Assembly: GCA_964461505.1 (NCBI GenBank)
Contig: CAYWUW010000003.1
Location: 37,680 to 101,679, forward strand
Direction: 5' to 3'
DNA length: 64,000 nt
From: an uncultured Candidatus Saccharibacteria bacterium
GTDB lineage: Bacteria; Patescibacteriota; Saccharimonadia; Saccharimonadales; HK-STAS-PATE-42
The notes under the pieces were generated by a model that was not told where the DNA came from, did not search any database, and worked only from the letters and a program-made list of their open reading frames with translations. Within the stretch, counting starts at the first letter, position 1, and each line of letters opens with the position of its first letter. The position numbers and the translations under genes were made by a program. Below, piece by piece: positions 37,744 to 63,234 of this stretch.

Positions 37744-37750
37744 GATTTAA

Positions 37751-41739: not shown

Positions 41740-41850
41740 AAGAGCTGGAATTGAATTCCACAAAGCGGGAAGAAAAAGGCTATTGACTGAGCTTAAGCTT
41801 AAGCGTAATATCTTAAGGTAAAGTACTAAGTTTTTAAGAAGGAGAGAAAT

Positions 41851-42180
41851 ATGGTACCAAGCTTAAGAAAATACATTAAACAACAAGAGATTCTAGTTAT
41901 TGCGATTGGAATTGTTCTGGGTTTTGCGCTAAAAGATTTTGTGGAAAGCTTTATTAGATCTTTTATAACTCCACTTTTAGATAAGCTTTATGGCGGAGCT
42001 GGAAGTTTAACTGCCAAAACAGTTGATGTTGGTGGAGTAAGGTTTAAACCAGGCGATTTTGCAGATGCAACAATAACTTTTGCGGCAATTATTTTGGTAG
42101 CCTATGTTGCTGTTTACACTTATAACACCGCAACTCATCAACTTCGCCCTAAAGAAGAAAAATCTAAAACTAAAAAATAG
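41851..42180 (+). CDS. mscL: Large-conductance mechanosensitive channel
   Basis: FIKQQEILVIAIGIVLGFALKDFVESFIRSFITPLL. 109 aa with two TMs. Confidence 0.75.
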   Translation: MVPSLRKYIKQQEILVIAIGIVLGFALKDFVESFIRSFITPLLDKLYGGAGSLTAKTVDVGGVRFKPGDFADATITFAAIILVAYVAVYTYNTATHQLRPKEEKSKTKK

Positions 42181-42200
42181 ATTTAAGCTTAGTTTTTTAT

Positions 42201-42238
42201 AATCTCTCTTAAATTATTCAATTTTGGAGAGATTTTTT
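42201..42238. terminator. Bidirectional hairpin terminator between mscL and the M50 protease gene
   Basis: aatctctc-(loop)-gagagatt followed by TTTT. Confidence 0.5.
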
Positions 42239-42851
42239 AGAATAGATTTAAAATGTATTGATTGATGCTCTTTAAGATTTGATTGATATTCGGGTAAATT
42301 ATTACCATAAAAAAGATGATCGAGGCAAAACCAAAAGATTCAATTTTATCCATAATGCTGCGTAAAGAATCTGGCGCAATTGCGTATAGAACACGAGAAC
42401 CATCAAGAGGTGGAAATGGGATTAAGTTAAAAACAGCTAGGCCGACATTAACACTGGTAAGGTAGGCTAAGAAAATAGAGAGGTAACCTGCTTGATAACC
42501 GACTACCGAAAGTATTAGGCCGGCTAAAATTGCAAGAAGCAAATTAGAAAGTGGGCCTACAACAGCAACTAGAGCCATGCCGTATTCTTGCCCTTTTAGA
42601 GCCCATGGCGTAACTTGAACTGGCTTGGCGGCTCCAAAAGGCTGAGCTCCAACGAGATTTAAGATTAGCGCTAAGGCAATGGTTGTGAGTGGATCTATAT
42701 GGTGCAAAGGATTTAAGCTTACGCGTCTGTTGACTCTTGAGCTGCCATCTCCTAAAAAGTAGGCCACTAGACTGTGCATGCTTTCGTGCACACTAATTGA
42801 AAGTGCTAGAGCGGTTATGACGATTGCGATTTCGGCTAGATCTAAATTCAT
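42237..42851 (-). CDS. Site-2 protease family (M50) zinc metalloprotease
   Basis: HESMHSLVA (HExxH) within a polytopic membrane protein. Confidence 0.7.
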   Translation of the reverse strand: MNLDLAEIAIVITALALSISVHESMHSLVAYFLGDGSSRVNRRVSLNPLHHIDPLTTIALALILNLVGAQPFGAAKPVQVTPWALKGQEYGMALVAVVGPLSNLLLAILAGLILSVVGYQAGYLSIFLAYLTSVNVGLAVFNLIPFPPLDGSRVLYAIAPDSLRSIMDKIESFGFASIIFFMVIIYPNINQILKSINQYILNLF

Positions 42852-43026
42852 GCTTTTGGGTTTAATTTTAGCAGATAAGTTTAATGCTGATCTAGCTATT
42901 AAGCTTAAGATTTTTGGGTTGGGATTTTAAGCTTAAGATTATTGTACTTAAGCTTAGCGTGGTTTTTGTGGGAAGCTTTATCTGAAGTTATCCAGAGATT
43001 GGCTGGGTAAGAACTGCACTAGGTTT

Positions 43027-43532: not shown

Positions 43533-44399
43533 CTACAAAAAAAGAGTTGTTGAATTATTATTTTTTAGCGCATTCTGCGCACAAGGTTTGAGCCGAATGC
43601 CGCTATAATTAAAGCGGTTGCTAAAGATGCTCGGATTGAACCGCTTATATGGGCTACGACCAACATAGAACTTAAAACAGCTAGACAGCCGACTTGCCAG
43701 GTTAATTCTGCGGAAAATAAGTAGGATAATCTTTTTTCTTCGTTGGCATTTTTGTAAAAAGCGGTTGTGTAAGCAGTACCGCTTAGAGAGTTCACTGCTC
43801 CAGCGAGCTTGGTATAACTTCCAAACGGTCTGAAATGCAATTGTGGTCTTTCCGGTTCCTGTGGCTAGAGTCAGTAGAACTCTTTGCTCACCAGCAGAGA
43901 TAGCCTCAACAGCATGGTTAACTGCGTTTTCTTGGTAGTAGCGAGGACTATACTTACTTCTTTGAAAAGGCTCGGTTAGAACTTCTTTTTGAATATCGGT
44001 TCGATCACCAAGTGTCATAGAGAATAACTCTTCGGGCGTATGGTAGCTGGAGACCTCTTCACCTCTTCCGTTCTTCATATCGAAGAAGTAAATGCCGTGC
44101 CCGTTAGTGCTATACACAAAACGAATATTCAAAGTTTCGGCATATGCCTTTACTTGCTCAAGTCCATCGGTGATTTCTTTATCTTCTGACTTTGCTTCTA
44201 CTATAGCTAGCTTCTGGTTTTGGTATGCTAAGACATAATCTGCTTTTTTCTTCTTTCCTCTTTGGCCAGCACCGATTAGACGACCGTCCGTGAATGCGTA
44301 CTCAGCTATAACTTGAGAACCTAGAGTTTCGTTAATGCCCCACTTTGCAGACTGTATCTGAGGATCTATTAGTTCAAGGCGCGTGGTAGCTTCGTTCAT
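43533..44399 (-). pseudogene. hsdR: Truncated type I restriction endonuclease subunit R (N-terminal about 200 aa only)
   Basis: HsdR N-terminal domain plus helicase motif I (LLTLATGTGKT). Similarity then stops near 43810 and the frame continues as junk. Confidence 0.7.
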
Positions 44400-44411
44400 A
44401 TGTCTATTATT

Positions 44412-45611
44412 CTACATCACTTCCATGAATGCCTGGTGAAGCATGGATTGCTTAAGTTCGCCTATCTTCAGAAGTTTACGTTCCATAAATTCTAGAATAG
44501 CGGCTTCTTTACCCTTAAGTGAATTTACTTTTTCAACAACGGCCTCCTGGATTGTTAGCGGAGGGAGTGAAATAGGTAATCCTTTCAGAACCTTGACCGA
44601 CGCGACATTCTGAATTGCAGCACCACCAGTGTTTACAGCAAGCATTTCTTGGAAAACACTGCTCTCGATCCAGTGCTTCAAGTATAGGCCGTTCAACTTA
44701 TGCCCTATGGGAGAAAACTTCAGAAGAGCTTGATTAATAATTCCATCTTTAACGCCAGGTGGAATGACAGCAATTCTCCCGATCGTTCCTGAGCAGCTCA
44801 TTATTAGATCGAAGGGCCGAACCTGAAATCTCTGCATTTCATCAAACTTTTCTTTATCTACAAAATATCTGATGTTTGTAAAGTCACCATAAATCGCATG
44901 TCTTTGTTCATAAACTGCGTATCCACTTTTTTTGAAGGTATCCTTCTTAAGACTCCCCCCAAAAGGACCCCTAACAAAGTCGCATACGCTACCCAGCGGA
45001 AGGGCAGCGTAATTCTGACTACTGATGATCTGCTCGTTAGTGACTTTCTTGAACATATTGCGGAAGTTACTGTATTCCATTTGAGTGAGATCAGTTATTC
45101 GGTCGATTTGCTTAAAAGCAGCATCTAGTTTTGCCACAACTCTTCGTTGCTCACTAATTGAAGGTGGGGTTGGCAGGTCTATATTTCGAATGATAATCAT
45201 ATTTAACCCTCGTCGGTCATTCCCCGAGTCACCGGTTATCTTGCGGAGCTCATGGTATCTTCCTTTTAGGTTCCAATAAATCCATTCGGGCAGAACTTTC
45301 GATTGGTCTTTGGGGATTATACTTACCAAGGATTGATTGCAAGTGGCTTCGGTACGTAAGATTGCAACCGTTGCTCGTGTCTTACCCTGACCATTTAATG
45401 CAATCATGACTGAGTTGACGGGAAGAATTCGTGCGTTCGAGTTTTTGAGAGCTTCTTCTGTTATCCTGCCATCACAATCGTGTATCTCGCCTTTGTGTAT
45501 ATCTCCAGAAACAAGCCATTTAATGTTACCCCCTTGGAAATATTCCTTATGTGACCGACTCGGTGTACCCCCTGTCATCAGATTACATATGTCACCAAGT
45601 TTGACTGCCAT
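44412..45611 (-). CDS. hsdS: Type I R-M specificity subunit
   Basis: Two target-recognition-domain halves with conserved central and C-terminal helices. Adjacent to hsdM. Confidence 0.85.
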   Translation of the reverse strand: MAVKLGDICNLMTGGTPSRSHKEYFQGGNIKWLVSGDIHKGEIHDCDGRITEEALKNSNARILPVNSVMIALNGQGKTRATVAILRTEATCNQSLVSIIPKDQSKVLPEWIYWNLKGRYHELRKITGDSGNDRRGLNMIIIRNIDLPTPPSISEQRRVVAKLDAAFKQIDRITDLTQMEYSNFRNMFKKVTNEQIISSQNYAALPLGSVCDFVRGPFGGSLKKDTFKKSGYAVYEQRHAIYGDFTNIRYFVDKEKFDEMQRFQVRPFDLIMSCSGTIGRIAVIPPGVKDGIINQALLKFSPIGHKLNGLYLKHWIESSVFQEMLAVNTGGAAIQNVASVKVLKGLPISLPPLTIQEAVVEKVNSLKGKEAAILEFMERKLLKIGELKQSMLHQAFMEVM

Positions 45612-45613
45612 AC

Positions 45614-47074
45614 CTATAACTCAATCTCGTCTAGTAATTTTGATATTTCTAAATCAATTTCCTTGATGTCTTGCAAAATTTCTTTCGGTGACTTCAGCTG
45701 TTCAACTTCAGGTTCATTGGGATTCTTGACGCCTAGCTCAAATGTTGTTTTATCAATATCATCAATCTGTACAGTCCAGCTATTTTGACTATTCTCCCGG
45801 CTGCGTAACTTCTTTAGGAAATCAGCCATGTCACTAATGTTGAGAGGTGTGGTTTTACCTAAGTTACGCCCCACATCTAGCTGATAATAAAATATCTCTT
45901 TTGTAGGCTCTCCCTTCCTAAAGAAAAGTACGACCGTTTTTACCCCTGTTGAACCAGTCGCGCTAAAGATTCCCCCATGTAGATCAAGGATAGTGTGGAG
46001 ATTGAAGTTTTCCAGCAACTGTTTGCGGATTGCACCAGTAGCACCATTTGGTTCGTTTGTTAAGAATGTATTCTTGATTACAATTGCTGCTTCCCCGCCA
46101 ACACGAAGCTTCTTCATAAAGTGTTGAAGGAATAAGTTAGCAGTCTCACGGGTTTTAACATCAAAGTTGCGTTGAATCTCAGAATGCTCGCTTCCTCCAA
46201 AGGGTGGATTAGCAAGGATGTAATCATACCTGTCCTTTTCCTGGATATCATGAGTGTCTTCAGCTAGAGTATTCGTGTGAATCATGTTTGGAGATTCAAT
46301 TCCGTGAAGAATCATGTTCATCGTGCCTAGTAAATACGGCTCCGGTTTCTTATTCTTTCCAAAGAAAGTACTTTCTTTTAAGAACTTAAGTTCAGACGGT
46401 GTTTTGGTTTTCTCTCTGAGGTAGGAGTAGGCTTCTGTTAAGAATCCTGCAGAACCAGCAGCTCCGTCATAGATAGTTTTACCAAGCTCAGGATCAACAG
46501 CTTGTACTATGGCCTGGATCAAAGGACGAGGGGTATAGTATTCACCGCTTCTACCTGCACCACCCATGAGCTTTAATCTATCTTCGTAAAGTGCAGAAAG
46601 GTCGTCGAGTTCATCCTGAGTCTTAAACTCAAGCTTATCAATGATGTCTATTACCTCTCGCAGATTACGTCCACTCTGAATTTTATTTGTGACTTCACCG
46701 AATATCTCTCCTATCTTATAGAGAAGAGATTTTGGATCTACAGTTATATTCTTAAACTCTTTTAGGTAGGGAAAAAGTTTATTATTAACGAACTCAATTA
46801 GATCATCGCCTACTAGCTGTGCTGATATGTCGGCAGAGCCATCTGCTTTTTTAGGCGCTGCCCAATTGTCCCACTGGAACTCCTCTTTAAATAATGGCTC
46901 ATATGGCTTATCTGTGAATACCGCCTCTTGCTTACGAATATCTTCTAGGTCGTCAAGATACTTAAGAAAGAGGATCCAGGACATTTGCGCCATGTAGTCG
47001 TTGGCACCATTGGTACCAGCATCCTCGTGGAGGATATTATCGATCTTTTTAAACTCTGTTTGTATGTTTGTCAT
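45614..47074 (-). CDS. hsdM: Type I R-M N6-adenine DNA methyltransferase subunit
   Basis: HsdM N-terminal domain, ..DGAAGSAGFL.., ILANPPFGG. Confidence 0.9.
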   Translation of the reverse strand: MTNIQTEFKKIDNILHEDAGTNGANDYMAQMSWILFLKYLDDLEDIRKQEAVFTDKPYEPLFKEEFQWDNWAAPKKADGSADISAQLVGDDLIEFVNNKLFPYLKEFKNITVDPKSLLYKIGEIFGEVTNKIQSGRNLREVIDIIDKLEFKTQDELDDLSALYEDRLKLMGGAGRSGEYYTPRPLIQAIVQAVDPELGKTIYDGAAGSAGFLTEAYSYLREKTKTPSELKFLKESTFFGKNKKPEPYLLGTMNMILHGIESPNMIHTNTLAEDTHDIQEKDRYDYILANPPFGGSEHSEIQRNFDVKTRETANLFLQHFMKKLRVGGEAAIVIKNTFLTNEPNGATGAIRKQLLENFNLHTILDLHGGIFSATGSTGVKTVVLFFRKGEPTKEIFYYQLDVGRNLGKTTPLNISDMADFLKKLRSRENSQNSWTVQIDDIDKTTFELGVKNPNEPEVEQLKSPKEILQDIKEIDLEISKLLDEIEL

Positions 47075-51892: not shown

Positions 51893-51936
51893 CTAGCTTT
51901 CCTAAAACCTTCGCGGTATGATTGTTCGTTGCAGCC

Positions 51937-53238
51937 ATGCTGGACAATAATACTCAACAATTAAAATATTGCCTGTACGCAAGAAAATCATCTGAATCGG
52001 ATGAACGTCAGGCAATGAGTATTGATTCACAACTTGCCGAGATGAGATCTATGGCTGAGAGTGAAGGACTTAGCGTTGTATCAGAGCTGCAAGAAAGTCA
52101 TTCTGCTAAAGATTCTGGCCAAAGACCGTTATATAACAAGCTACTACAGGGCTTGAGAGACGATGAGTACAACGCAATCTTAACTTGGGCACCAGATAGA
52201 CTCTCAAGAAACGCAGGGGATCTAGGGGCAGTTGTAGACCTAATGGATCAAGGTAAACTTCTGCATATCAGAACCTACTCCCAGACATTCACTAACAACC
52301 CGAACGAAAAATTCCTCCTGATGATTCTCTGCTCTCAGGCCAAGCTAGAGAACGATAATAAAAGTGTAAATGTTAAGAGAGGAATTAGATCTAAATGCGA
52401 GATGGGCTGGCGACCAGGAGTTGCGCCTCTTGGGTATATTAATAGAGCCTTTGGAGGAGTTAAAGATATTATTCCAGACCCAGAGCGTGCAGAGATTATA
52501 ACCGAGATGTTTAGGAGGGCTGGGCAAGAGAATTGGAGTAGCAGGAGATTGAAAGTCTGGATGGATGAACAGAATCTTACGAGCAGAGCAGGTAAAACAG
52601 TTGCCGTAAGCCAAATCCTTAAGATGTTAAAGAACCCATTTTACTACGGTGAGTTTCAATACCCAGAAGAACCTGATGGTAAATGGTATAAGGGTGCGCA
52701 CGAACCTCTCATATCTAAGGAGTTATTCGACCTAGTACAAGAGACAAGAGGATTAGTTAAAGGCAAGTGGGGGCTAAAACAGTTTGCATTCCGAGGACTA
52801 CTTGAATGTGGAACTTGTGGGGCTGGAGTAACGGGAGAGGATAAATACAAGAAAATTAAAAGTGATGGATCTATCCGAAGGTATGTCTACTACAGGTGCA
52901 CTAAGAAGAAGGATGCCAAGTGTCCAGAAAAGTACATTGGAGAACCCGAATTAACTAGAGCGATCCTAGAACACATTGAAACTTCCGGTAAGGATATTAA
53001 AATATCCAGCGCATTAAGAGCTTCTTCAGAACGCTACACTGCGATGATGAAGACTATGTATGAATACCACAAAGTCAAGACAGAATTTGATGCCCCACTT
53101 ATCGAGTATGCTCGCTATGTTCTAGGAAAGGGTACCGAAGATGAGAAGAGAGCCCTGGCCAAAGGAATTGTGAGCAAGCTTGTTTTTAAGAATGGAAGAG
53201 TTAATAAGGTTCGGGAACCACTCGAAGACTTAATCTAA
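51937..53238 (+). CDS. Large serine recombinase
   Basis: YCLYARKSSESDERQAMSIDSQ (catalytic Ser region), resolvase, recombinase and zinc-ribbon (CGTCG...CTKKKDAKC) architecture. Confidence 0.9.
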   Translation: MLDNNTQQLKYCLYARKSSESDERQAMSIDSQLAEMRSMAESEGLSVVSELQESHSAKDSGQRPLYNKLLQGLRDDEYNAILTWAPDRLSRNAGDLGAVVDLMDQGKLLHIRTYSQTFTNNPNEKFLLMILCSQAKLENDNKSVNVKRGIRSKCEMGWRPGVAPLGYINRAFGGVKDIIPDPERAEIITEMFRRAGQENWSSRRLKVWMDEQNLTSRAGKTVAVSQILKMLKNPFYYGEFQYPEEPDGKWYKGAHEPLISKELFDLVQETRGLVKGKWGLKQFAFRGLLECGTCGAGVTGEDKYKKIKSDGSIRRYVYYRCTKKKDAKCPEKYIGEPELTRAILEHIETSGKDIKISSALRASSERYTAMMKTMYEYHKVKTEFDAPLIEYARYVLGKGTEDEKRALAKGIVSKLVFKNGRVNKVREPLEDLI

Positions 53239-53853
53239 ATAATTAGTATATTCTTTTATCAGAGCTGTTTCGTTAAGCCTCTTTTCCGATACGACTCTAT
53301 CGTATTTATGCCAGCCATTAAGGTCTTTAAGCTTAAACCTTACAGCACCTTCAGATAAATATTTGATAGCCCCGTCTCGAAGACGACCACTCATTTCTAT
53401 AAAATCAGGTCGGACCGATACGCTGAGTTCCTCGACTTTATTCTCGTCTAATTTTGACATTATTATACTCAAATTAACTGTATAGTCCTGGATGAAGTTG
53501 AGCTCCTTGAGACATTTCGTTGATAGCCAAACATGCTTTTTATAACAACTATGGAAAGTTTCGCCCCACCATTTTTCAAAGATGATTTTATTATTTACTA
53601 CGGCTACACCCCTAACCGGTCTTTCCACCTTGCTTGAATAGTGTTCTGTATTTTCAGGCATTACTACCGTCATCATAGTATCAGCAAGGTCTAGAGCACT
53701 CTCATGAGCATCTATTCGCCTATCAATAATCTTTGCCTTCTGCTGCTTCTTGAAACCGAGATTCTGCCGGAAAATCTCAAGGATTTGAGAAACTACTACC
53801 CCGAACAGAGTGCCTACCGCGGCAATGATACCAATATTATATTCACTACTCAT
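53230..53853 (-). CDS. Hypothetical protein with an N-terminal TM
   Basis: 207-aa ORF, convergent with the recombinase and overlapping it by 9 nt. Confidence 0.45.
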   Translation of the reverse strand: MSSEYNIGIIAAVGTLFGVVVSQILEIFRQNLGFKKQQKAKIIDRRIDAHESALDLADTMMTVVMPENTEHYSSKVERPVRGVAVVNNKIIFEKWWGETFHSCYKKHVWLSTKCLKELNFIQDYTVNLSIIMSKLDENKVEELSVSVRPDFIEMSGRLRDGAIKYLSEGAVRFKLKDLNGWHKYDRVVSEKRLNETALIKEYTNYLD

Positions 53854-54077: not shown

Positions 54078-54108
54078 GGAAAAAGAAAAACCGATCATAG
54101 GGATCGGT
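54078..54108 (-). terminator. Rho-independent terminator downstream of trpS2
   Basis: Minus strand ACCGAUC-CCUAU-GAUCGGU followed by UUUUUCUUUUUCCC. Confidence 0.6.
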
Positions 54109-54225
54109 CTGTATCTGTTAGCTGCTGTGTTTGGCTCCGCATACGGGTCACGAACCATTTAACTGATAAAAACGAGACAAATGAGACACATTGAAGCAAT
54201 ATTTGATTTTAATTTTGTTTGTAGT

Positions 54226-55227
54226 TTACGAACCGTATAACCGCATTGCTTTTCTTACTTCTGCCATAGTTTCATTGACTACTTGTCTTGCCTTAGTGGT
54301 TCCGTCTTCTAGAATATTTTTTACTAGATCTGGCTGTAGCTCATATTCTTCTCGCCTTACACGGATTGGTTCTAAAAACGTATTAAGTACGTCCACCAGG
54401 TACTGTTTGACCTCAATGTCACCAACTTGACCATTGCGATAACGTTGCTTAAGAGCCTCGGTGGTTTTTTTATCAGTACCAAAAGCGTCGAGATATATAA
54501 ATACTGGGTTACCTTCTACCTTACCAGGATCAGTTGTGCGTTGACGTGTTGGATCGGTATACATTTTCATGACCTTTGTCTCAACTTCATCATGACTATC
54601 TGATAAGTAGATAACGTTGCCTAGACTTTTACTCATTTTTGCACTACCATCTGTACCCACCAACCGTGCAATACGTCCAGTCAGGATTTCTGGCATATTG
54701 AAAGTATGGCCATATATTGTATTAAACCTATTAACGACTTCACGAGTTAATTCAACCATTGGCGCCTGGTCATCACCAGCCGGAACTAAGTCAGCGTTAA
54801 AGCCTAATATGTCTGCTGCTTCAGATAATGGGTAATTTACAAAGCCTACGGGAACATTTGCACCAAATCCCTTTTGCTTCATCTCCGATTTAACAGTAGG
54901 ATTACGTTGCAAACGCGCAAGACTGACTAAATTCATAAAATATACAGTAAGCTCAGCGAGCTCTGGAATTTGTGATTGCACAAATAGAACTGCTTTACTT
55001 GGATCTAATCCAACCGCTAGGTTGTCCAGGGCAACTTGATAGACACTTTCACGAACTTTATCAGGATTGTCAAAATTGTCCGTAAGGGCTTGAACATCAG
55101 CCTGCATGATAAATGTTTCGTATTCATCTTGTAGCTTCACTCGGTTCTCCAGCGTCCCTATATAGTGGCCGAGGTGCAATTTACCCGATGGTCGGTCACC
55201 AGTTAAAATTCTCTTTCTCGTATTCAT
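54226..55227 (-). CDS. trpS: Tryptophan--tRNA ligase, second (auxiliary) copy
   Basis: ILTGDRPSGKLHLGHYIG (HIGH), KMSKS. 333 aa with AGGAG SD. Confidence 0.9.
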   Translation of the reverse strand: MNTRKRILTGDRPSGKLHLGHYIGTLENRVKLQDEYETFIMQADVQALTDNFDNPDKVRESVYQVALDNLAVGLDPSKAVLFVQSQIPELAELTVYFMNLVSLARLQRNPTVKSEMKQKGFGANVPVGFVNYPLSEAADILGFNADLVPAGDDQAPMVELTREVVNRFNTIYGHTFNMPEILTGRIARLVGTDGSAKMSKSLGNVIYLSDSHDEVETKVMKMYTDPTRQRTTDPGKVEGNPVFIYLDAFGTDKKTTEALKQRYRNGQVGDIEVKQYLVDVLNTFLEPIRVRREEYELQPDLVKNILEDGTTKARQVVNETMAEVRKAMRLYGS

Positions 55228-55826
55228 TTCTTTTCTCCTAATTTAGTTTGTAATTGCGTAATTGTTTGTAAAAGTAGTTCTTTACTTTTAATGCTAGTTA
55301 TTTGAGAGCATCCAAAACTTAGGACAGCCACTTCCTGTGAATCCGGTTTCAACTTACCTAAATAAGAACTTCTGATTCCCAGAATACCTAATATGCCCTT
55401 CTCGGTCACAGCAATAATTGAATGTGGCTTTATTGGCGTAGAGCCATTTTTAGTTTTCAGGTATTCGCCTTTGACTGAAAAACGAATTTCAACTGAATTA
55501 AACTCATCAACCGAGAATACAGTGATTGGTATATCTGTATAGTAACTTGCTTTAATTATGAGACCAGTCAGCGGATCAGGGACAGGTAAATCTTTGATTG
55601 TAGGGTAGCTTTTGAGTCTTTCGACTGCAAGCAAGCTGCTCTCTGCAAACTTCTCTCGAAATTTGCTATATGAAGCTTTTTCTTGCCTACTCAACCTTAA
55701 GCCGTCTAAGGCTTTAAGGTTTAAAGAACCTATGTCGTCTGAAATCTCACGAACTTGAATCACTTTATAAAAAACTTCAAGCTCAGGAATCACTTTACGG
55801 ACGGAAGCGTCAAGCACTACTTTCAT
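55224..55826 (-). CDS. Hypothetical protein, possibly B3/4 (PheRS-beta editing-domain-like) fold
   Basis: By-eye resemblance to stand-alone B3/4 proteins (MKVVLDASV..IPELEV...; ..VTEKGILGILGIRSS..). ATGA overlaps with both neighbours. Confidence 0.35.
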   Translation of the reverse strand: MKVVLDASVRKVIPELEVFYKVIQVREISDDIGSLNLKALDGLRLSRQEKASYSKFREKFAESSLLAVERLKSYPTIKDLPVPDPLTGLIIKASYYTDIPITVFSVDEFNSVEIRFSVKGEYLKTKNGSTPIKPHSIIAVTEKGILGILGIRSSYLGKLKPDSQEVAVLSFGCSQITSIKSKELLLQTITQLQTKLGEKK

Positions 55827-57406
55827 GGTTCACTCCTAACATACATTGGTCGAAATGCTGCAAGACGTTTGCCCTTGTCATCTCCAAATACAGCTGCGTC
55901 CCTATTAAAAGGCACTGCTCGTAAGTATATGCTCGACACATCTATTCCAGCTTTTCGGCTCCTTTCCACAGCATTTGATAACTGGGCAAAGCTGTGTAGT
56001 GAATAGCGAAAAAGTGGCACTGGTGTTTTTTGGCCAGGTACAAATGCATACAAAATATCGGTATCCGACGGAACCTTGCCTAGTTCCAACATCCTGAACA
56101 ATTCTTCGTGAATCCTTGGTGCATTATCTTTATCGATTTTCTTAGGACGAATCAAGTTCAGTAATTTATCCAAATGTCGCCCTGCTACTTGGAACGTTGG
56201 AAGTGTTGTTGCCTCGTGTTCAAATACTTTTAACAGCGGGTCTGGGAATGTGGAAATATCGGCTCTCACTACTTTTTCTGTAAACGCAGCATACCCTCCT
56301 GATTCAATGTCAGGGTTTAGTACGATTACACTTGTATCGTCTGTAATTGCATCGTATTGAGAAATACCAAGAACAGTAACTTTGAAGCCAATTTTTTCTA
56401 ACATTGAGGTTAGTGATTTTGTCTCATTTACCTCAAGCATATCGGTAGAACTTTCCAGTGACTCGTCTTTAACAATAATGGTTATATGGTCTGTTGCTAT
56501 ATGCTTTTCGATGGCTACCCCCACCTGTGCCTTTAGCTTTTCTACTATCTGAGCAACTTGTTCAAGTGGCCGATTTTTAGCTCTCTCTATCTCAGTCAAA
56601 AAGAATCCAACATCAGGCATGTTTATCCTTTCGATAGCAACATTTTCGTCAGTATCAACGAAGCAGTCTGGCTGAAAATATAGTAAATCATCAGCTATGC
56701 CTTGAGGGGACTGAGGGTCTCGAGCAGCAAGAGCAATAGCCTGCCGAAATGGTACTCCTGCTTTGATATGCTGGCGTGCCACAAAAGCATAGGATCTCAC
56801 ACGCATCAAAGCCTCTTGCACGGCTGGTTGAGTATCGGCAGAAAGCACTGCTCCAGTTTCAACTGGATTAATCAGGAAAAAACCACTTCTGCTACCAACA
56901 GCTGTATCCGGTAGTTTGACACCTTTTTCTTCAGCTTGTTCCACAAACTCATTCATAAGGCCAAATGTTTTTCCTAAATTATTTTCTGCATAAGCTGCTG
57001 TTACAGACATTGCTAACACACCAAGTTCTGGGTGTTCAGCTATACCCTCTTTGACGCTCTCTTCTAACAAAGCATGTGGAACTGGCGCTGATACCTCAAA
57101 CGAGCCTTGTTGAGCAACAGATCTATCAACAGTAAAAGCTGTAAAATTACCACCAGGACCTTGGTCCATTCTCAGGAACCGATATAATCCTGCGCCTCGT
57201 AACCTTTGCTTAAGTTCAGGTCCAACGCTCGGAAAGAATGCTGCCCTTAGCTCAGCAGGTGAGTTTTCACGAAGTGACATAAAATTTTCGTATGCCTTAA
57301 ATTCATCATTACCATTTATCATCGGATCTGCCGCTTCATAATATGTATCCATACTGCCTGCAGCCATTTTTACTCTTCCACCTTCTGCTATTTCAAATTC
57401 ACTCAT
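55823..57406 (-). CDS. Hypothetical 527-aa protein, no recognisable family
   Basis: Long ORF with GGAG SD; first gene after the attenuator. Confidence 0.6.
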   Translation of the reverse strand: MSEFEIAEGGRVKMAAGSMDTYYEAADPMINGNDEFKAYENFMSLRENSPAELRAAFFPSVGPELKQRLRGAGLYRFLRMDQGPGGNFTAFTVDRSVAQQGSFEVSAPVPHALLEESVKEGIAEHPELGVLAMSVTAAYAENNLGKTFGLMNEFVEQAEEKGVKLPDTAVGSRSGFFLINPVETGAVLSADTQPAVQEALMRVRSYAFVARQHIKAGVPFRQAIALAARDPQSPQGIADDLLYFQPDCFVDTDENVAIERINMPDVGFFLTEIERAKNRPLEQVAQIVEKLKAQVGVAIEKHIATDHITIIVKDESLESSTDMLEVNETKSLTSMLEKIGFKVTVLGISQYDAITDDTSVIVLNPDIESGGYAAFTEKVVRADISTFPDPLLKVFEHEATTLPTFQVAGRHLDKLLNLIRPKKIDKDNAPRIHEELFRMLELGKVPSDTDILYAFVPGQKTPVPLFRYSLHSFAQLSNAVERSRKAGIDVSSIYLRAVPFNRDAAVFGDDKGKRLAAFRPMYVRSEP

Positions 57407-57420
57407 AATATTTCTCCTTT

Positions 57421-57451
57421 AAAAATTAAAAGACTCCCTTCCCGGGAGCCC
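57421..57451 (-). terminator. Intrinsic terminator in the operon leader (attenuator)
   Basis: Minus strand GGCUCCC-GGGAA-GGGAGUC followed by UUUUAAUUUUU, immediately before the AAAGGAG SD of the 527-aa gene. Confidence 0.65.
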
Positions 57452-57480
57452 TAAGTTACATTTATTCAAAATTTTACAAC

Positions 57481-57561
57481 CTAAATAGACTCCCGTGTGT
57501 AATGAGAGCTACGCCAAGCACCTAGTTCACCACAACTAACTAATAATTCAATATGACTCAT
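57481..57561 (-). CDS. Candidate 26-aa leader peptide MSHIELLVSCGELGAWRSSHYTRESI (one Trp codon)
   Basis: The ATG overlaps the trpR-like stop (ATGA) with GAGGA 7 nt upstream. TGG at 57516-57514. The last codons cover the antiterminator arm CGGGAGUC. Confidence 0.5.
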   Translation of the reverse strand: MSHIELLVSCGELGAWRSSHYTRESI

Positions 57562-57815
57562 AATTGCTTCCTCAAAACTTTGAAACGATCCTGACTTAGT
57601 TCTTTCGAGCCACGGGTAACCGTAGCAACTCCTACCCCAAGATCACTAGCAATTCTAGCCTGTGGTTCACCGGCAATTAATCGCTTGATAATCTCTACTC
57701 GTTGAGCTATTTCAGCACGTTCTTTATCGGTTGTCACACCAATTAGAAAGTCCTCAAGCAGCGCTCTATCTCGAGTAGCGTATATAATATTGATTACGTC
57801 ACCAAAATTTGACAT
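57558..57815 (-). CDS. Trp repressor family protein (TrpR / YerC-YecD type)
   Basis: ..TTDKERAEIAQRVEIIKRLIAGEPQARIASDLGVGVATVTRGSKEL aligns with the E. coli TrpR helix-turn-helix (..GIATITRGSNSL). Confidence 0.8.
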   Translation of the reverse strand: MSNFGDVINIIYATRDRALLEDFLIGVTTDKERAEIAQRVEIIKRLIAGEPQARIASDLGVGVATVTRGSKELSQDRFKVLRKQL

Positions 57816-57821
57816 AGCTAT

Positions 57822-57850
57822 ATACTAGCATACTAGTACGTTAGTGTCAA
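57822..57850 (-). promoter_or_regulatory. Promoter TTGACA-17-TAGTAT overlapped by a TrpR-operator-like palindrome
   Basis: Minus strand GTACTAGTATGCTAGTAT matches the E. coli trp operator GTACTAGTTAACTAGTAC at 14/18 positions with the same CTAG-N4-CTAG spacing. The ATG is 6 nt after the -10. Confidence 0.55.
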
Positions 57851-57893: not shown

Positions 57894-59342
57894 TCAGATA
57901 CGTCGTATCTCGCGACCTTGACTATCTTTTTGGACTTTTGGAACTTTATTTTTGTCTCCAAATTTAAAGTCAAAATCTCTGATGAACTTTGGAACCGAAG
58001 TATCGCCTTCACGCATTGGTACGAATACCCGAAGCAGTGGATTCATTTCCCCGCTTAGTACCGGTATGCTAGTTTTCTTAACTTTGCCACTCTTAAGTGT
58101 TACTTCTGCTGGCACACTGCCGAGCATGAGCTTATCGAAGTAGACCTGTACAGATTCACGCATGTTACGGGCATTCTGCTGAGTACTTGGCTTTTCGGTT
58201 TGCTGGGTGGGTTCTTTAGGCTCTACTTTTGGAACATAGCCTTTTTTTATACGCTGTTCAACTAATTTCTTTAGGTCTTCTTCACTTTCGTAAGCCCTGA
58301 GGCTGCCTGACAGAAATCCGAGCCGGTAGCTCACGCCTGCACTCATGACTCGCCAGTTAGTGTCTTCGAGTACTTTTTCAATTGCCTTATGTAAAGTTTT
58401 CTTGCTTTGATATTCCTCGCGATCATCTTTGGTATCCAGACAGTTGAAGCTCAGTGTGACCTCACGGCCAAGCTGTGGGTCACCGAGCTTAAAGTCACTG
58501 TAACCGTTTTTGGTAAAGACTGGTTCAAGTAATTCTTTGAGCTGAGCAATTTTGAGTTTCTTAACTTGCTTAATGCCGTCATAGACATCGGCATGTTGAA
58601 CCTTATCTTCAACTGATGCATTGAGGTTAGCCAGACGTTCGAAGTGTTTGAGCTTCTGGTCATATCTAAACATCATGTCGCTTCCGAATATGAAGCGTTT
58701 GCGATCTAACTCTAAGTACGGGTCAACTGGTTCAGGTTCACTTTCAGTGTCGCTTAAATCTAGGGTTTCGGTTTTAATGTGCCCGCATTTCTCGCAGGTT
58801 TCAGTCCAGGTGATGATGTCCTGCTTTTTGGTGTGTTTTGAAATAGTTTTGCTACCACACTTTTCACACTCGCGTTTGGCGCCCTCCCATTCAGTGTCAT
58901 CTTCCCAAAGCGCCCTGCGTTTATTACAAGCTTCGCATTCGAACATTATGAGAATGTTATCTTCTTTATGATTATCACGGTGCAGGTAGTCTTTACTCAC
59001 CACTTTCATATCTTTACCGCAGGCTCGGCAGAATGTTCCACCTGCGATATGAGCTGAAGCAAGACGTTCATCTTTTTTCTGGTCTTCTGCCATCCACTTG
59101 GCAATAGTAGCTCCCCGATTTGCGGCTCGTTCGGCAGCGGCAGACTCAACAAACAAGAAGTAGTACTGGCTGTAGTGCAGATACCAACCTGTTAGCCTAT
59201 CTGTTAACTCCTTCTTGCCGAGCTTCTTCTCCATTGTAGTGAAAGTTTCGTTGACGAGGCTTTCACCTGATCGGCACTTGGAAACAGTGGCATCGTCATA
59301 ACGTTCTTCGTAATATTCACGACTTTTGAGATACGTGTACAT
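57894..59342 (-). CDS. Hypothetical protein with two CxxC...CxxC zinc-ribbon pairs
   Basis: FCRACG...CEACN...CEKCG...CEKCG. 482 aa. Confidence 0.55.
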   Translation of the reverse strand: MYTYLKSREYYEERYDDATVSKCRSGESLVNETFTTMEKKLGKKELTDRLTGWYLHYSQYYFLFVESAAAERAANRGATIAKWMAEDQKKDERLASAHIAGGTFCRACGKDMKVVSKDYLHRDNHKEDNILIMFECEACNKRRALWEDDTEWEGAKRECEKCGSKTISKHTKKQDIITWTETCEKCGHIKTETLDLSDTESEPEPVDPYLELDRKRFIFGSDMMFRYDQKLKHFERLANLNASVEDKVQHADVYDGIKQVKKLKIAQLKELLEPVFTKNGYSDFKLGDPQLGREVTLSFNCLDTKDDREEYQSKKTLHKAIEKVLEDTNWRVMSAGVSYRLGFLSGSLRAYESEEDLKKLVEQRIKKGYVPKVEPKEPTQQTEKPSTQQNARNMRESVQVYFDKLMLGSVPAEVTLKSGKVKKTSIPVLSGEMNPLLRVFVPMREGDTSVPKFIRDFDFKFGDKNKVPKVQKDSQGREIRRI

Positions 59343-59692: not shown

Positions 59693-59898
59693 TCAATGAT
59701 ATTGTGGTATCATAGGAACTATACAATTCGTTCAGGAACTTTTTGTATAAGGAAGCGCTGTACAGGCGCTTTTCCTATTTCTACCCTCAGGGTTCCTGCC
59801 CCGATTACCTCTAGAATACACCCATTTGTTGGTAATTGCAACATTGTACTGTGTCCCAGATTATTGTTTTTGCGTCCCAGCTATGTTACTATAGAACC

Positions 59899-60942
59899 AT
59901 GAAGGAACAAATGCGCAAAAAAAACATACTCAACCTCATTAAGTACTACGCCGAACACAATGACGCGGGCTTTCGTGATGAAGCGTATAATATTGCTCGC
60001 CTATTTGACCAGAGCGGAGATCCGCAATTGGCCGAATACATCATGGCCCTGCTCTCAGGCGCTAATACGTTCGTACCGCAAAACCATGAATATGAATCTC
60101 CCTATTTTCATAAGGTAAACCTGGCTGGTGATTCACTACCACTCCCCACCTCCATAAAGAACGACGTGTTCGGTGCGATCAGTGCGGTTAACCATCATGC
60201 TGGAATAAATAAATTTCTATTTGAAGGTGATCCCGGGACCGGAAAGACTGAAACCGCAAAGCAAATGGCACGCATATTAGAGCGTGACTTGTATTTGGTA
60301 GATTTTGATAGCGTTATTGATAGCAAGCTTGGCCAGACCTCCAAGAATATAGCATCAGTATTTCAAGAGATACGTGCTCTGCCTAATCCAGATAAGGCGA
60401 TAATTCTGTTTGACGAGATTGATGCTATCGCCCTAGACAGAGTTAACTCAAACGATCTGCGAGAAATGGGTCGCGTTACTTCTTCGGTTCTTAAAGGGCT
60501 CGATGGGCTAGGAGATACTGTCGTATTTATAGCAACTACCAACCTATTCGGTCAATTTGATAAGGCCTTGACGAGAAGATTTGATTCAATTATTAACTTT
60601 AACCGATATAGCAAAGATGAATTAATTGATGTAGCCGAAATAATCTTGAATGAGCTTCTGGGTAGGTTTAAGTTTGCCGGAAGGAGTATGCGCCTCTTTA
60701 GAAAAATCGTAGCAACTATGAAGCACATTCCCTACCCTGGTGAGATGAAGAACATAATCAAGACAGCTATTGCTTTTAGTGACCCCTCAAACGAGTATGA
60801 CTACCTTAAAAAGCTCTATGAAACCGTTCACGGTGGTGTCAGTGACCTGAAACAACTACAAGAAGAAGGCTTCACCATTCGGGAGATCGAAATTCTTACG
60901 GGAGTATCAAAGAGTAGAGTTGCCAGGGAGCTGCAGGAATAG
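59899..60942 (+). CDS. AAA+ ATPase (IetA-like)
   Basis: Walker A GDPGTGKTE, Walker B ILFDEIDAI. Directly followed by an S8 protease gene. Confidence 0.75.
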   Translation: MKEQMRKKNILNLIKYYAEHNDAGFRDEAYNIARLFDQSGDPQLAEYIMALLSGANTFVPQNHEYESPYFHKVNLAGDSLPLPTSIKNDVFGAISAVNHHAGINKFLFEGDPGTGKTETAKQMARILERDLYLVDFDSVIDSKLGQTSKNIASVFQEIRALPNPDKAIILFDEIDAIALDRVNSNDLREMGRVTSSVLKGLDGLGDTVVFIATTNLFGQFDKALTRRFDSIINFNRYSKDELIDVAEIILNELLGRFKFAGRSMRLFRKIVATMKHIPYPGEMKNIIKTAIAFSDPSNEYDYLKKLYETVHGGVSDLKQLQEEGFTIREIEILTGVSKSRVARELQE

Positions 60943-60945
60943 ATA

Positions 60946-63234
60946 ATGAACAATATACTGCAGCTTAAAGGCAACCTTAATAAGCGAAAAAGTGGTGGTA
61001 GACCTGGACCGCCAAACATGCCCAAAAGTAAAAGTGCGTCTGTCGATGCTAAGCACTTGGATAAACTTATTTCTGAGTTGAATACCTTGGGCGAATTCTG
61101 GCGAAAAGAGACTGTGATTGGTGGTGCGCTGGTGGACGTGCACTATATTACGGTCGTTGCGAAAAGCAATAGAATTAGCAGGATTTTTTATAATGGCGAG
61201 AATCAAAAATCTAATGACTCAATTGTGGGGGCTCATTTTGTTGATGCTGACACGTCAAAACCAAAACACGTGATTACTCACTATGTTACTGAGGCTATCA
61301 TTCAAGATTCTGTTGATAAGTTAGCCATTAGTAAGAAAGTTCTTAATGATGAGTTCGGCGGTACTATCAACCATGATGATATAAGCAAAATCAAAGATAA
61401 AAATATAAACTTCAAAAAGTATGGCATTAGCGAAAATGTCTTTTTGAATATAGTTGTTGATTCCCATTATGTCAGTAGTTTTGATATTCCTAGAAACAGC
61501 GCCAACGCCACAGGAGAGCAGTTAGTTACCATATATCGAACCGACGAGGACGCATCTGATATTCTCAGTAAGATCGGCATTGATACTCTGGGCAAGAACT
61601 TAAACAAAACTACTCTACTCTTGTATCCAGATGATGTAAAAACTTTGCAAGAAAAGGCCCCCTACTTGATAGCGATGGCGGTAGAAAATATCTCAGAGCT
61701 AGATCTAGAAGATATTGTTGGTAGCAGTAATAAAAGTCGGGAAACTCCATACATACCCACGCCGCAAAATGAACCAACAATTGGGGTTATTGATACATTG
61801 TTTGACGACAATGTGTACTTCTCTGAATGGGTTGAATATGTACCTATGGTAAGTTCTGAAATTATTGACCCGAAAGATCATAAAGATCCGGCAGATTACA
61901 GCCACGGAACTGCCGTAACTTCAATTATTGTTGATGGTCATAACATAAACCCAGATCTAAATGACGGCTGTGGCAGGTTCAAGGTCAAACATTTTGGCGT
62001 AGTTGGTAGTAAGCCTTTCAGTTCGTTCACCGTCATCAAGGACATACAGGAGATAGTGAAAAAGAACCCTAACATCAAAGTGTGGAACCTATCACTGGGA
62101 TCAACAAAGGAAGTTCATGGAAACTTTATCTCTCCTGAAGCGGCAGCATTAGATCAAATACAATGTGACAGCAATGTTATTTTTGTAGTTGCGGGCACCA
62201 ACAAGCCTGATGACCGCAAGGAGCCAATGCGTATAGGTGCACCAGCAGATTCAATAAACTCAATTGTAGTAAACTCTGTGAACAAATCTCGCGATCAAGC
62301 TTCCTATTCTAGAACAGGAAGAGTTCTTTCCTTTTTTAACAAACCAGACGTCAGCGCAATAGGTGGTGATGTCGGTGGTAACGACGAAAAGATACGCGTT
62401 TGTGAGCCAAATGGAGAGGCTTTCGTTTCAGGAACATCATTTGCAGCTCCATGGATAGCAAGAAAACTGGCCTATTTGATTGAAGTTTTGGGCCTGAGTC
62501 GCGAAGTCGCAAAAGCCTTAATTGTTGATGCTGCAGCAGACTGGGATGATACCGTAAACAATCAAGCTCTTGCTCCCTTAATTGGCCATGGTGTTGTACC
62601 AATAAAAATTGATGATATCGTGAAATCAAAAAACGACGAGATTAAGTTTATCATGAGCGGTACTTCAGAGTTGTACGATACCTACGCATATAACTTACCA
62701 GTACCCATAAACAAAGGTATGCACCCCTTCGTAGCAAAAGCTACTCTATGCTACATCCCCGAATGTTCTGCCAATCAAGGCGTTGACTACACAGACACAG
62801 AGCTAGATGTTTCTATAGGTAGAATCGCGAAGCTTAGAACTAAAGATGGTGTGCCACAATACGGCATAAATACTATTAATAAAAATGTGCAGACCGTAAG
62901 TGGCTCTTGGACCTTAGAAGGAGATGCCAGAAAGCTCTTCCGTAAATGGGATAACACGAAGCACATCCGTGAAAAGTTTGGAGATGACCTAAGACCCAGA
63001 AAGTCGTATGAAAGTGGAATGTGGGGAGTAAGCGTTAAGCGGAAAGAGCGTCTGGAGAAGAAAAAGCCTGTAAGATTTGGGCTAGTTGTTACTCTGAAAG
63101 AGGTAAATGGCGTTAATAGGATCAACGATTTTATACAGAAAGCCCGTCTAGCCAACTGGGTTGTTAGTGAAGTAAACGTAGACGCTCAAGTTGACATATA
63201 CCAGAAGCTCCAAGAAGAAGTTAAGTTCGAGTAA
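60946..63234 (+). CDS. Subtilisin-like S8 serine peptidase (IetS-like)
   Basis: Catalytic triad motifs IGVIDT (Asp), HGTAVTSII (His), GTSFAAPWIA (Ser). 762 aa. Confidence 0.8.
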   Translation: MNNILQLKGNLNKRKSGGRPGPPNMPKSKSASVDAKHLDKLISELNTLGEFWRKETVIGGALVDVHYITVVAKSNRISRIFYNGENQKSNDSIVGAHFVDADTSKPKHVITHYVTEAIIQDSVDKLAISKKVLNDEFGGTINHDDISKIKDKNINFKKYGISENVFLNIVVDSHYVSSFDIPRNSANATGEQLVTIYRTDEDASDILSKIGIDTLGKNLNKTTLLLYPDDVKTLQEKAPYLIAMAVENISELDLEDIVGSSNKSRETPYIPTPQNEPTIGVIDTLFDDNVYFSEWVEYVPMVSSEIIDPKDHKDPADYSHGTAVTSIIVDGHNINPDLNDGCGRFKVKHFGVVGSKPFSSFTVIKDIQEIVKKNPNIKVWNLSLGSTKEVHGNFISPEAAALDQIQCDSNVIFVVAGTNKPDDRKEPMRIGAPADSINSIVVNSVNKSRDQASYSRTGRVLSFFNKPDVSAIGGDVGGNDEKIRVCEPNGEAFVSGTSFAAPWIARKLAYLIEVLGLSREVAKALIVDAAADWDDTVNNQALAPLIGHGVVPIKIDDIVKSKNDEIKFIMSGTSELYDTYAYNLPVPINKGMHPFVAKATLCYIPECSANQGVDYTDTELDVSIGRIAKLRTKDGVPQYGINTINKNVQTVSGSWTLEGDARKLFRKWDNTKHIREKFGDDLRPRKSYESGMWGVSVKRKERLEKKKPVRFGLVVTLKEVNGVNRINDFIQKARLANWVVSEVNVDAQVDIYQKLQEEVKFE

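Follow-up and report, generated by a model that had tools for sequence, protein, structure and literature searches.

Why would a bacterium that already has one tryptophanyl-tRNA synthetase (TrpRS) keep a second, and place it behind what look like two successive tests for tryptophan (Trp), in company with two proteins of quite other kinds? The question is raised by a 64,000-nucleotide stretch of DNA (here ‘the window’) from an uncultured Candidatus Saccharibacteria bacterium, positions 37,680 to 101,679 of contig CAYWUW010000003.1 (assembly GCA_964461505.1). In it a minus-strand unit at 54088-57850 runs from a promoter with operator through trpR, a leader open reading frame (ORF) with attenuator, and three overlapping genes, for proteins of 527 amino acids (aa) and 200 aa and for the auxiliary TrpRS, to a terminator. 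All seven of these elements, listed in an initial annotation made from the letters alone, were found on that strand. The wiring that can be read from them is that of an operon switched on only when free Trp, sensed by TrpR, and charged tRNA-Trp, sensed by the attenuator, are both low. Since the sensors and the Trp-poor composition of the products point the same way, ‘needed under Trp shortage’ is the firmest functional statement to be made. As to what the products do, an even chance is given here to a Trp-shortage operon in which Trp-sensing regulation is joined to a PEARL/LanB-like ligase, acting most likely on Trp-tRNA(Trp), a B3/4 deacylase and a TrpRS of the type known as TrpRS II.

Two layers of tryptophan sensing

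Is the unit under Trp control at two levels, as had been proposed? Transcription would start from a sigma-70-type promoter (57822..57850, minus strand, as are all operon features given below), TTGACA-17 nt-TAGTAT with an extended TG, which is the sole match in the region to 10/12 consensus positions. The trpR ATG is 6 nucleotides (nt) downstream of the -10 hexamer, and the mRNA thus probably has no 5' leader, or hardly any. Between and over the -35 and -10 elements lies a TrpR-type operator (57824..57845) of three CTAG/CTAA repeats at 8-bp spacing, CTAACGTACTAGTATGCTAGT, with its core, ACTAGTATGCTAGT, at 57824-57837 and the third repeat, CTAA, 8 bp further on. The operator ACTAGTNNGCTAGT has a single exact match in the whole 64-kb window and may be likened to the core of the E. 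coli trp operator, ACTAGTTAACTAGT; promoter and ACTAGT..GCTAGT operator are kept in 7/7 Saccharibacterial lineages, i.e., the window and six further ones.

The 85-aa product of trpR (57558..57815) matches the Pfam Trp_repressor family, PF01371, with 50.6 bits (cut-off 27, E = 2e-13). Its score against TIGR01321, 46.5 bits, is under the equivalog cut-off of 67.25, so that it is to be taken as a family member by its sequence, its orthology being unproven. It aligns to E. coli TrpR structures (E = 2e-6) with the Arg of ‘RV’ and that of ‘TRGS’ both kept, and these align with the corepressor-contacting Arg54 and Arg84 of E. coli TrpR.

The second layer begins where trpR ends. The ATG of a 26-codon leader ORF, MSHIELLVSCGELGAWRSSHYTRESI (57481..57561), overlaps the trpR stop codon as ATGA, with a GAGGA Shine-Dalgarno sequence upstream and one Trp codon, at 57514-57516. 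Hairpin and folding analysis gives an attenuator RNA (57430..57509) of four segments: the first, GCTCTC (57504-57509), is directly 3' of the Trp codon; the second, GGGAGTC (57488-57494), is at the end of the leader ORF; the third, AGGGCTCCC (57444-57452), and the fourth, GGGAGTCTT (57430-57438), are the 5' and 3' arms of a first terminator, a G+C-rich hairpin at 57452..57430 that is followed by a T-run. The GGGAG(U/C)C at the end of the leader ORF repeats the 3' arm of that terminator, and it has two pairing options, with GCUCUC just past the Trp codon (1:2) or with the terminator 5' arm (2:3). Folded as free RNA, the window transcript forms 1:2 together with the 3:4 terminator. When the footprint of a ribosome stalled at the UGG is masked, the 2:3 antiterminator forms, at -21.1 kcal/mol, a value reached by 0/300 shuffles, and the terminator is gone; when masking extends up to the stop codon, the terminator returns.

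How general is the arrangement? Attenuators were compared in seven Saccharibacterial lineages, those of the window and of L006, L007, L026, L032, L033 and L034. A leader ORF homologue of 25-27 codons is present in every one, starting on the trpR stop codon in six of the seven, and in all of them the distance from an invariant leader Trp codon to GGGAG is 19 nt and to the stop codon 33 nt. A second leader position varies between Arg and Trp (CGG, AGG or UGG), an alternation that is expected if it is the nucleotides of GGGAG, and not the amino acid, that are under selection. The 2:3 duplex is stronger than in shuffled controls in 5/7 lineages (fraction reaching it <=0.02). At Rfam gathering threshold the window has neither a Trp_leader (RF00513) nor a T-box match, and for want of the latter a T-box explanation of the leader was rejected; to judge by its sequence the attenuator functions like a trp leader, yet outside family RF00513.

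Both Trp-sensing layers are well supported, the operator and the aligned TrpR Arg residues being kept and the attenuator Trp codon standing in fixed register in 7/7 lineages, and the proposal of double control can be retained. With Trp present, TrpR would occupy the CTAG operator that overlaps the promoter. In transcripts that escape, translation of the leader to its end would leave segment 2 either covered or bound to segment 1, and RNA polymerase would be stopped at the 3:4 terminator, before the 527-aa gene. With Trp-tRNA(Trp) scarce, the ribosome would stall at the lone conserved UGG and mask segment 1, and the freed GGGAGUC would pair with the terminator 5' arm and so permit read-through.

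None of the regulatory devices is new in kind. In E. coli trp and in Chlamydia trachomatis trpR-trpL-trpBA, a CTAG-repeat operator, a Trp leader ORF and alternative hairpins turn expression on at low Trp or Trp-tRNA. With Chlamydia trpRBA there is the further likeness that trpR comes first, with an autoregulated operator, and that leader and attenuator precede the structural genes. In contrast to both, the window operon regulates no Trp biosynthesis genes, and its leader has one functional Trp codon instead of tandem ones and an ATG that overlaps the trpR stop.

Synthesis without tryptophan

Could the products be made under the circumstances that would induce them? Proteins needed when an amino acid runs out are typically depleted in that amino acid. 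The four proteins of the operon have 0 Trp in 1145 residues, compared with 1.07% in the 52 other ORFs of the window (P ~4e-6), and, being all Trp-free, they are makeable under Trp shortage. What is true of the window is close to true of the families: the 527-aa family has 42 Trp in 51,428 residues (0.08%), with 77/99 members having none, and the family of the B3/4-like 200-aa protein has 1 Trp in 3556 residues.

A ligase-like protein of an uncatalogued family

What is the 527-aa protein (55823..57406), whose gene has a strong Shine-Dalgarno sequence, AAAGGAG, upstream? The initial annotation saw no recognisable motif in it, and rightly so, as there is no match in Pfam, NCBIfam or PADLOC, the Lant_dehydr_N and ATP-grasp profiles of Pfam and NCBIfam included. 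A profile of 48 family members gave spurious RASSF5 matches only, and no LanB, among PDB sequences, and HMMER searching of 1.84 billion cluster representatives returned the family itself only, with no bridge to LanB or ATP-grasp families. A word-indexed search puts the family at 48 proteins, and among the 1.84 billion it has 93 cluster representatives at 50% identity; its complete members are all ~470-580 aa. A literature search returned no description of it, or of a Trp-regulated module of ligase, partner and TrpRS.

The fold is more informative. With the family alignment, AlphaFold2 gives a model with pLDDT 91.8 and pTM 0.91, and Foldseek against PDB finds for it eight matches at E <= 0.001. 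Five are with chains of NisB and MadB, lanthipeptide dehydratases that depend on tRNA, at E 3e-6 to 9e-5, probability 1.0 and query-normalised TM-scores (TMq) of 0.38-0.51 (NisB: E = 3e-6, TMq 0.45; MadB: TMq 0.51), with a root-mean-square deviation (rmsd) of 13-16 Å and about half of the target covered. The other three are glutathione-synthetase-like/GshA-like ATP-grasp enzymes (3k1t, GSS22), at TMq ~0.3 (0.28-0.30) and probability 1.0; viral structures gave a weak D-Ala-D-Ala ligase match only. D247 and N262 are invariant and E259 is nearly so, and in the model they are on the beta-hairpin E243-250/E256-262. There they appear to be placed like the Mg/ATP ligands of ATP-grasp enzymes, a candidate triad proposed without residue-level superposition.

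The dual resemblance matches what has been published. PEARLs and LanBs are proposed to descend from ATP-grasp ligases, and PEARLs keep the ATP-dependent activation of a carboxylate while using an aminoacyl-tRNA as nucleophile, with formation of an amide (PMC11117183; PMC11962472). From the model we infer for the 527-aa protein an origin in the PEARL/ATP-grasp lineage and the activity of an ATP-dependent carboxylate-amine ligase. On the same structural ground its family, which is rare and absent from Pfam and NCBIfam, would be kin to LanB/PEARL and ATP-grasp proteins in fold only. PEARLs (BhaB, AmmB2) and the glutamylation domains of LanBs (NisB, MadB, TbtB) are its best structural matches, and its genomic link to TrpRS and tRNA-Trp is a further likeness, Trp-tRNA being among the substrates of PEARLs. 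It differs from them in its length (527 aa compared with ~950-1030 aa for the matched LanB chains), in having no sequence similarity to them, in having no scaffold-peptide or tailoring context, in being under Trp-shortage control, and in occurring in reduced-genome symbionts instead of natural-product producers.

Might the operon nevertheless be a cluster for a pearlin or another ribosomally synthesised and post-translationally modified peptide (RiPP), with the leader ORF encoding the scaffold, the 527-aa enzyme adding Trp from Trp-tRNA to its C-terminus and TrpRS serving as supplier or for self-resistance? PEARLs that add Trp do exist, AmmB2 and the BhaB type (PMC11117183, PMC11962472), and along with the LanB fold matches there is a conserved short ORF, with C-terminal (R/W)E(S/P)x, directly upstream. 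Such a cluster is all the same very improbable. RNA-level constraint explains the leader’s conservation (an NGG codon for R/W, GGGAG kept, the hairpin in fixed register), and for that reason a scaffold role for the ORF was judged unlikely; homologues in other phyla carry WW leaders typical of attenuators; the cassette has no tailoring enzymes, transporter or protease; and a Trp-consuming product would hardly be made inducible by lack of Trp.

The 200-aa protein and the second TrpRS

The 527-aa, 200-aa and TrpRS genes had been described as overlapping by ATGA, and by coordinates each of the two junctions is indeed 4 nt. The 200-aa gene (55224..55826), which thus overlaps both its neighbours, specifies a protein earlier suggested to have a B3/4-like fold. 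That stands as probable, CtdA being the top Foldseek match; Pfam B3_4 (PF03483) is below its cut-off, at 19.3 bits against 29.3 (E = 9e-4), with sub-threshold matches in 3/9 family members at E <= 0.1, the best at 7e-6. The model is poor (pLDDT 49.5). With it, CtdA, a canavanyl-tRNA(Arg) deacylase, matches over the full length at E = 6e-3, and next comes a series of B3/4 editing domains of PheRS-beta, at probability 0.9-0.99; a profile of the family gave no match among PDB sequences, nor did one of the ~130-aa partner family introduced below. The 200-aa family comprises 18 proteins, all retrieved with the Saccharibacterial queries, and every locus read is this cassette. As modelled, the protein is probably a free-standing aminoacyl-tRNA deacylase-like protein of B3/4 fold. 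It is similar to CtdA in size (200 compared with ~230 aa) and in standing alone beside genes for one amino acid, and it differs in having no significant sequence similarity and in that the partner aminoacyl-tRNA synthetase here is TrpRS, for which we know of no editing factor.

The 333-aa TrpRS (54226..55227) matches TIGR00233 with 288 bits (cut-off 177), HLGH and KMSKS being intact. It is the second copy, as the housekeeping trpS that had been noted near 36.5 kb is present outside the operon, at 36523-37575, with TxGN and KMSKS motifs. The two are ~30% identical, and the best PDB matches of the housekeeping enzyme are ordinary bacterial TrpRSs. A parallel had been drawn in the initial annotation with the auxiliary enzyme of Deinococcus, and it is closer than was claimed: over 330 residues without gaps the operon TrpRS is 59% identical to D. 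radiodurans TrpRS II (PDB 1yi8, 2a4m; 430 bits), the next-best solved TrpRS structure scoring 292 bits. By sequence it joins the TrpRS II group as a new member. The auxiliary TrpRSs known are TrpRS II and the Streptomyces enzymes that resist indolmycin, and with them it has in common that it is a second, stress-induced TrpRS beside a ~30%-identical housekeeping copy (PMC9437257). It differs from the D. radiodurans enzyme in being co-transcribed with ligase-like and deacylase-like proteins and in its lack of a nitric oxide synthase (NOS) partner, no NOS gene having been noticed in the cassette or the annotated parts of the window. There is no tRNA-Trp gene in the window cassette; the window’s three tRNAs are for Met, Gln and Gln. 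The operon closes with an intrinsic terminator at 54088..54110, a 9-bp stem and then TTCTTTTT.

With such a set of proteins, is the operon a defence against a Trp antimetabolite or TrpRS inhibitor, such as indolmycin, chuangxinmycin, tryptamine or a Trp analogue? Less charged tRNA-Trp would then induce an insensitive TrpRS II, a trans-editing deacylase to clear analogue-charged tRNA-Trp and a ligase to inactivate the compound by conjugation. One indolmycin-resistant TrpRS copy is under leader-peptide attenuation. Editing domains are fused to cassette TrpRSs in L024, L031 and L038, although with the 20 standard amino acids TrpRS is not known to need any editing. There are recurrent GNAT genes in the vicinity, and the window cassette is in a defence-rich region. 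Auxiliary TrpRS genes give resistance to indolmycin and TrpRS II handles Trp analogues (PMC9437257), while protection from an amino-acid analogue by a free-standing B3/4 deacylase is already known from CtdA (PMC10018355, PMC12449066). We regard defence as unlikely even so. TrpR senses free Trp, not charging, and an inhibitor alone would not lift repression; the extreme depletion of Trp, and a true TrpB in the L024 cassette, better fit genuine Trp shortage; and most homologues have neither TrpRS nor editing domain.

Relatives of the cassette

Relatives, some 30 distinct lineages, came from genome and metagenome scans and from look-ups of encoding contigs. Two, with cassettes 79% and 61% identical to that of the window, are from metagenome-assembled genomes (MAGs) labelled Ca. 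Saccharibacteria and Ca. Saccharimonadales. The genomic neighbours of the Saccharibacterial cassettes (L006, L007, L026, L032, L033, L034) differ, and since the same succession of TrpR, leader, 527-aa gene and B3/4 gene recurs in at least seven Saccharibacterial lineages in different neighbourhoods, the association is far beyond chance.

What is conserved over the whole range is a gene of the 527-aa type and then one for a small partner, with stop and start codons that usually overlap. In Saccharibacteria the partner is the B3/4-like protein; in other phyla a protein of ~130 aa, unrelated and matching no family, takes its place. Homology of the two was rejected, as hhalign gives a probability of 0.1%, and a non-homologous protein therefore fills the partner slot.

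TrpRS is a more variable companion. It is just downstream in eight lineages (the window, L001/L006, L034, L023, L024, L031, L036 and L038), in at least three architectures, and identity to the window copy is 54% in L023 and ~33% in L024 and L031. As the types differ, the link to TrpRS has arisen more than once. In three lineages (L024 5011-6477, L031 8528-10027, L038 8006-9964) the TrpRS has a fused N-terminal editing domain of YbaK/ProX type, and we know of no bacterial TrpRS with an editing domain. That of L038 is a 652-aa fusion of editing domain, TrpRS and a C-terminal Trbp111-like tRNA-binding domain, and its cassette has a tRNA-Trp(CCA) gene directly upstream; in L036 the TrpRS is followed by a free Trbp111-like tRNA-binding protein. 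The L024 cassette has a true trpB (TIGR00263, 578 bits).

The co-occurrence that the initial annotation had proposed to look for is there, both trpS and trpR recurring near the family in unrelated lineages. On one point its picture is to be corrected: TrpRS does recur near the family, but the conserved core is the 527-aa protein with its partner under Trp control, and not TrpRS. The conserved module is a ligase-like protein and a small partner under Trp sensing, with TrpRS a frequent add-on.

Is tRNA needed at all? In a further explanation the 527-aa protein is a tRNA-independent ATP-grasp amidoligase that joins free Trp, a precursor or a derivative to a carboxylate or to the small partner, for N-protection as by RimK or LysX, or as carrier or salvage. 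TrpRS would merely be another member of the Trp regulon, sometimes in the same operon. RimK, LysX and amidoligases of the glutathione-synthetase type have AstE-like or M20 partners, and the likenesses to them are the secondary fold matches (glutathione-synthetase-like, GshA-like and D-Ala-D-Ala ligase structures), the acidic/Asn triad (D247/E259/N262 as candidate Mg/ATP ligands), and the recurrence of typical amidoligase companions, i.e., N-acyl-amino-acid hydrolases of AstE/aspartoacylase type (L022; L031, there fused to the partner) and GNATs (L004, L027, L031). In two high-G+C metagenome contigs (L027 952-6557, L028 19-4697) a C-A-T-TE gene of nonribosomal peptide synthetase (NRPS) type overlaps the start of the 527-aa homologue, and most loci have no TrpRS. 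On the other side, the best fold matches are with the tRNA-dependent LanBs (TMq 0.45-0.51) over ATP-grasp enzymes (0.28-0.30), with no Pfam ATP-grasp match; repeated TrpRS adjacency together with a tRNA-Trp gene, a free tRNA-binding protein and editing domains exceeds what shared regulation usually brings; the partner slot in Saccharibacteria holds a tRNA-deacylase-like protein; and a Trp/tRNA-Trp context has no precedent among RimK/LysX types. An amidoligase of this sort is quite unlikely.

Two observations on these loci may be added. Both NRPS loci are without the small partner, and in L027 a CG3035-type amino-acid N-acetyltransferase gene follows. In L036 a group I intron (2727-2928, minus strand; 68 bits, above the Rfam gathering score) sits upstream of the cassette, between a HEPN/MNT toxin-antitoxin pair and a helix-turn-helix gene.

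Other sensors, one purpose?

If the products are for use in Trp shortage, how is shortage sensed where the window’s attenuator does not occur? The pair has a TrpR gene at its side in L004, L008 and the P0018 locus, and two copies in L024. In 18/19 non-Saccharibacterial loci examined, tandem UGG-UGG occurs in a short leader ORF <=300 nt upstream. In gut alphaproteobacterial MAGs the leaders end ...FFWWH(C/S)-stop, the tandem Trp codons being the 5' arm of a hairpin, UGGCAC-UGCUA-GUGCCA, with a U-run after it, a design different from that of the window. Leaders of the form FFWWH(C/S)-stop, or LWWQLS/FWWQIS, are 98-126 nt upstream in L009-L021, L029 and L030, at -78 in L004 and at -102 in L008.

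Four lineages have divergent leaders that resemble Trp T-boxes: L036 3850-4059, L035 206-513, L038 ~5525-5880 and L031 ~4700-4850. Their scores are sub-threshold (40 bits in L036 and 28 in L035, compared with 93 for Rfam gathering). Common to the four is the T-box motif AAGGUGGCACC, whose UGGC would pair with the GCCA end of tRNA-Trp, and L036 and L038 have a very short stem I with UGGA, the specifier, in its loop. In L038 the leader precedes the tRNA-Trp gene and then the operon. Taken over most of the 527-aa family, control by Trp shortage is well supported.

A fourth kind of sensing may be at the level of decoding itself. In L023 (~5892-6010), L031 (~4892-5010) and L036 (~4106-4230) a short ORF that follows a strong Shine-Dalgarno sequence terminates in ...G(E/D)(R/Q)GLVW, and straight after GUU-UGG-(C/U) reading in the +1 frame gives the conserved N-terminus of the 527-aa homologue (..ERYxIxPxGGRIK..). 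A UAG just upstream closes this frame, and in L023 and L031 the conserved N-terminal segment has no start codon ahead of it; the gene caller’s start in L036, a GTG adjoining GGR, would skip the segment. The prfB frameshift context is AGGGGGUAU-CUU-UGA-C. The candidate sequence here, CGGGGUUUAGUUUGGC, has the prfB-like context CGGGGUUUA-GUU-UGG-C, i.e., a candidate programmed +1 frameshift at a Trp codon, and production of the enzyme would then hinge on UGG being decoded slowly. In a single MAG, L005 (~8010-8047, on the contig of L018), an apparent +1 shift exactly at CCC-UGG-C splits the 527-aa homologue, and the shifted reading restores a gap-free alignment to the family; either an assembly error in a homopolymer or a second frameshift at a hungry UGG could account for the split.

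From this diversity a wider reading may be drawn, to be taken as tentative, possible rather than probable. In it the 527-aa family is the core of an unrecognised, scattered Trp-starvation response, a compact PEARL-like enzyme with new chemistry on tRNA-Trp or Trp-tRNA(Trp), attended by TrpRS variants with editing or tRNA-binding domains. The Trp sensors in control of it would be of four kinds or more: TrpR, attenuators with leader peptides, T-boxes and, in a single clade, a hungry UGG codon with a +1 frameshift like that of prfB. The chemistry might be N-acylation, transfer or salvage that sustains UGG decoding, or might serve to signal Trp hunger.

What would the products do?

The reading preferred for the window, that of a PEARL/LanB-like ligase acting with deacylase and TrpRS II in Trp shortage, can now be put as a sequence of steps. 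The TrpRS II-type enzyme would charge tRNA-Trp. The 527-aa protein would activate a carboxylate with ATP and couple an amine to it, most likely the alpha-amino group of Trp-tRNA(Trp), free Trp or an analogue being possible instead. The B3/4-like protein would cleave an ester on tRNA-Trp, for editing of mischarged tRNA or for release of the ligase product, as the YbaK-type domains would likewise do elsewhere. Editing could amount to proofreading while Trp is scarce and near-cognate amino acids compete; the alternative is that an N-acylated product is set free. That tRNA-Trp or Trp-tRNA(Trp) is the substrate is suggested by the recurrent coupling to TrpRS, tRNA-Trp, and tRNA-binding and editing domains. 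The roles that had been put forward with caution in the initial annotation, protection of tRNA-Trp charging or a Trp-tRNA-dependent pathway, are those favoured by the LanB/PEARL/ATP-grasp-like fold, the likeness to CtdA and B3/B4 domains and the TrpRS and tRNA-Trp neighbours.

Several points count against that reading. The main weakness of its tRNA-dependent form is that a Trp-consuming reaction during Trp hunger is counter-intuitive. In 4/7 Saccharibacterial lineages and most alphaproteobacterial loci the DNA read around the gene, with 5-8 kb of flank as far as the contig reached, has no TrpRS, and with so many loci of this sort the neighbourhoods do not require dependence on tRNA. The likeness to LanB is at the level of fold only (TM-score 0.45-0.51, rmsd 13-14 Å), with no sequence match to solved structures, and the 527-aa protein is ~60% of PEARL length. 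The B3/4 assignment is based on sub-threshold Pfam matches and a low-confidence model. As to regulation, in equilibrium folds with a ribosome at the Trp codon the antiterminator wins in 2/7 lineages and the terminator in 5/7, because of which the switch would have to be kinetic. The E. coli trp attenuator works as a kinetic switch.

Why does it matter? The genes behind TrpR operators, Trp leaders and Trp T-boxes are normally for Trp biosynthesis, transporters or trpS. Here a new Trp-regulon member, an uncatalogued, Trp-purged family, is behind Trp sensors in distant lineages, many of them uncultured and represented by metagenome bins only, and, whatever its role, it is needed when Trp runs out. 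Trp shortage matters in host-microbe conflict, where depletion is driven by interferon-gamma and indoleamine 2,3-dioxygenase (IFN-gamma/IDO), and in episymbiosis. The chance is substantial that the whole system represents a new kind of response to starvation. The 527-aa family is a compact, tractable relative for study of the origin of PEARL/LanB from ATP-grasp ligases; the deacylase-like protein and editing domains would be the first known candidate editing factors for tRNA-Trp; and the system may include a natural frameshift that senses an amino acid.

Genomic setting

How did the operon come to be where it is? It had been seen as cargo of an integrative element between a serine recombinase (51922-53238) and a defence pair, IetA and IetS (59836-63234), with type I restriction-modification genes (43533-47074) elsewhere in the window. 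An integrative mobile element is plausible, given the defence-island context, the varying neighbours of the cassette and an IS1595 nearby elsewhere. The ends of the element, however, were not found, there being no att-like direct repeats between 26 and 64 kb of the window, and its boundary is not established.

Neither of the immediate flanking genes, at 57894-59342 (482 aa, with CxxC zinc-ribbon-like motifs) and 53230-53853 (207 aa), has a family match or was seen next to the cassette in any other genome examined. The type I restriction R subunit at 43533-44399, 288 aa with HSDR_N and the start of ResIII, looks truncated, and the adjacent HsdS and HsdM are full length. In the core-genome part of the window, 27346-42951, a palindromic motif, TTAAGCTTAAG, that was not seen around the operon repeats intergenically, and it may be a promoter-associated or regulatory motif.

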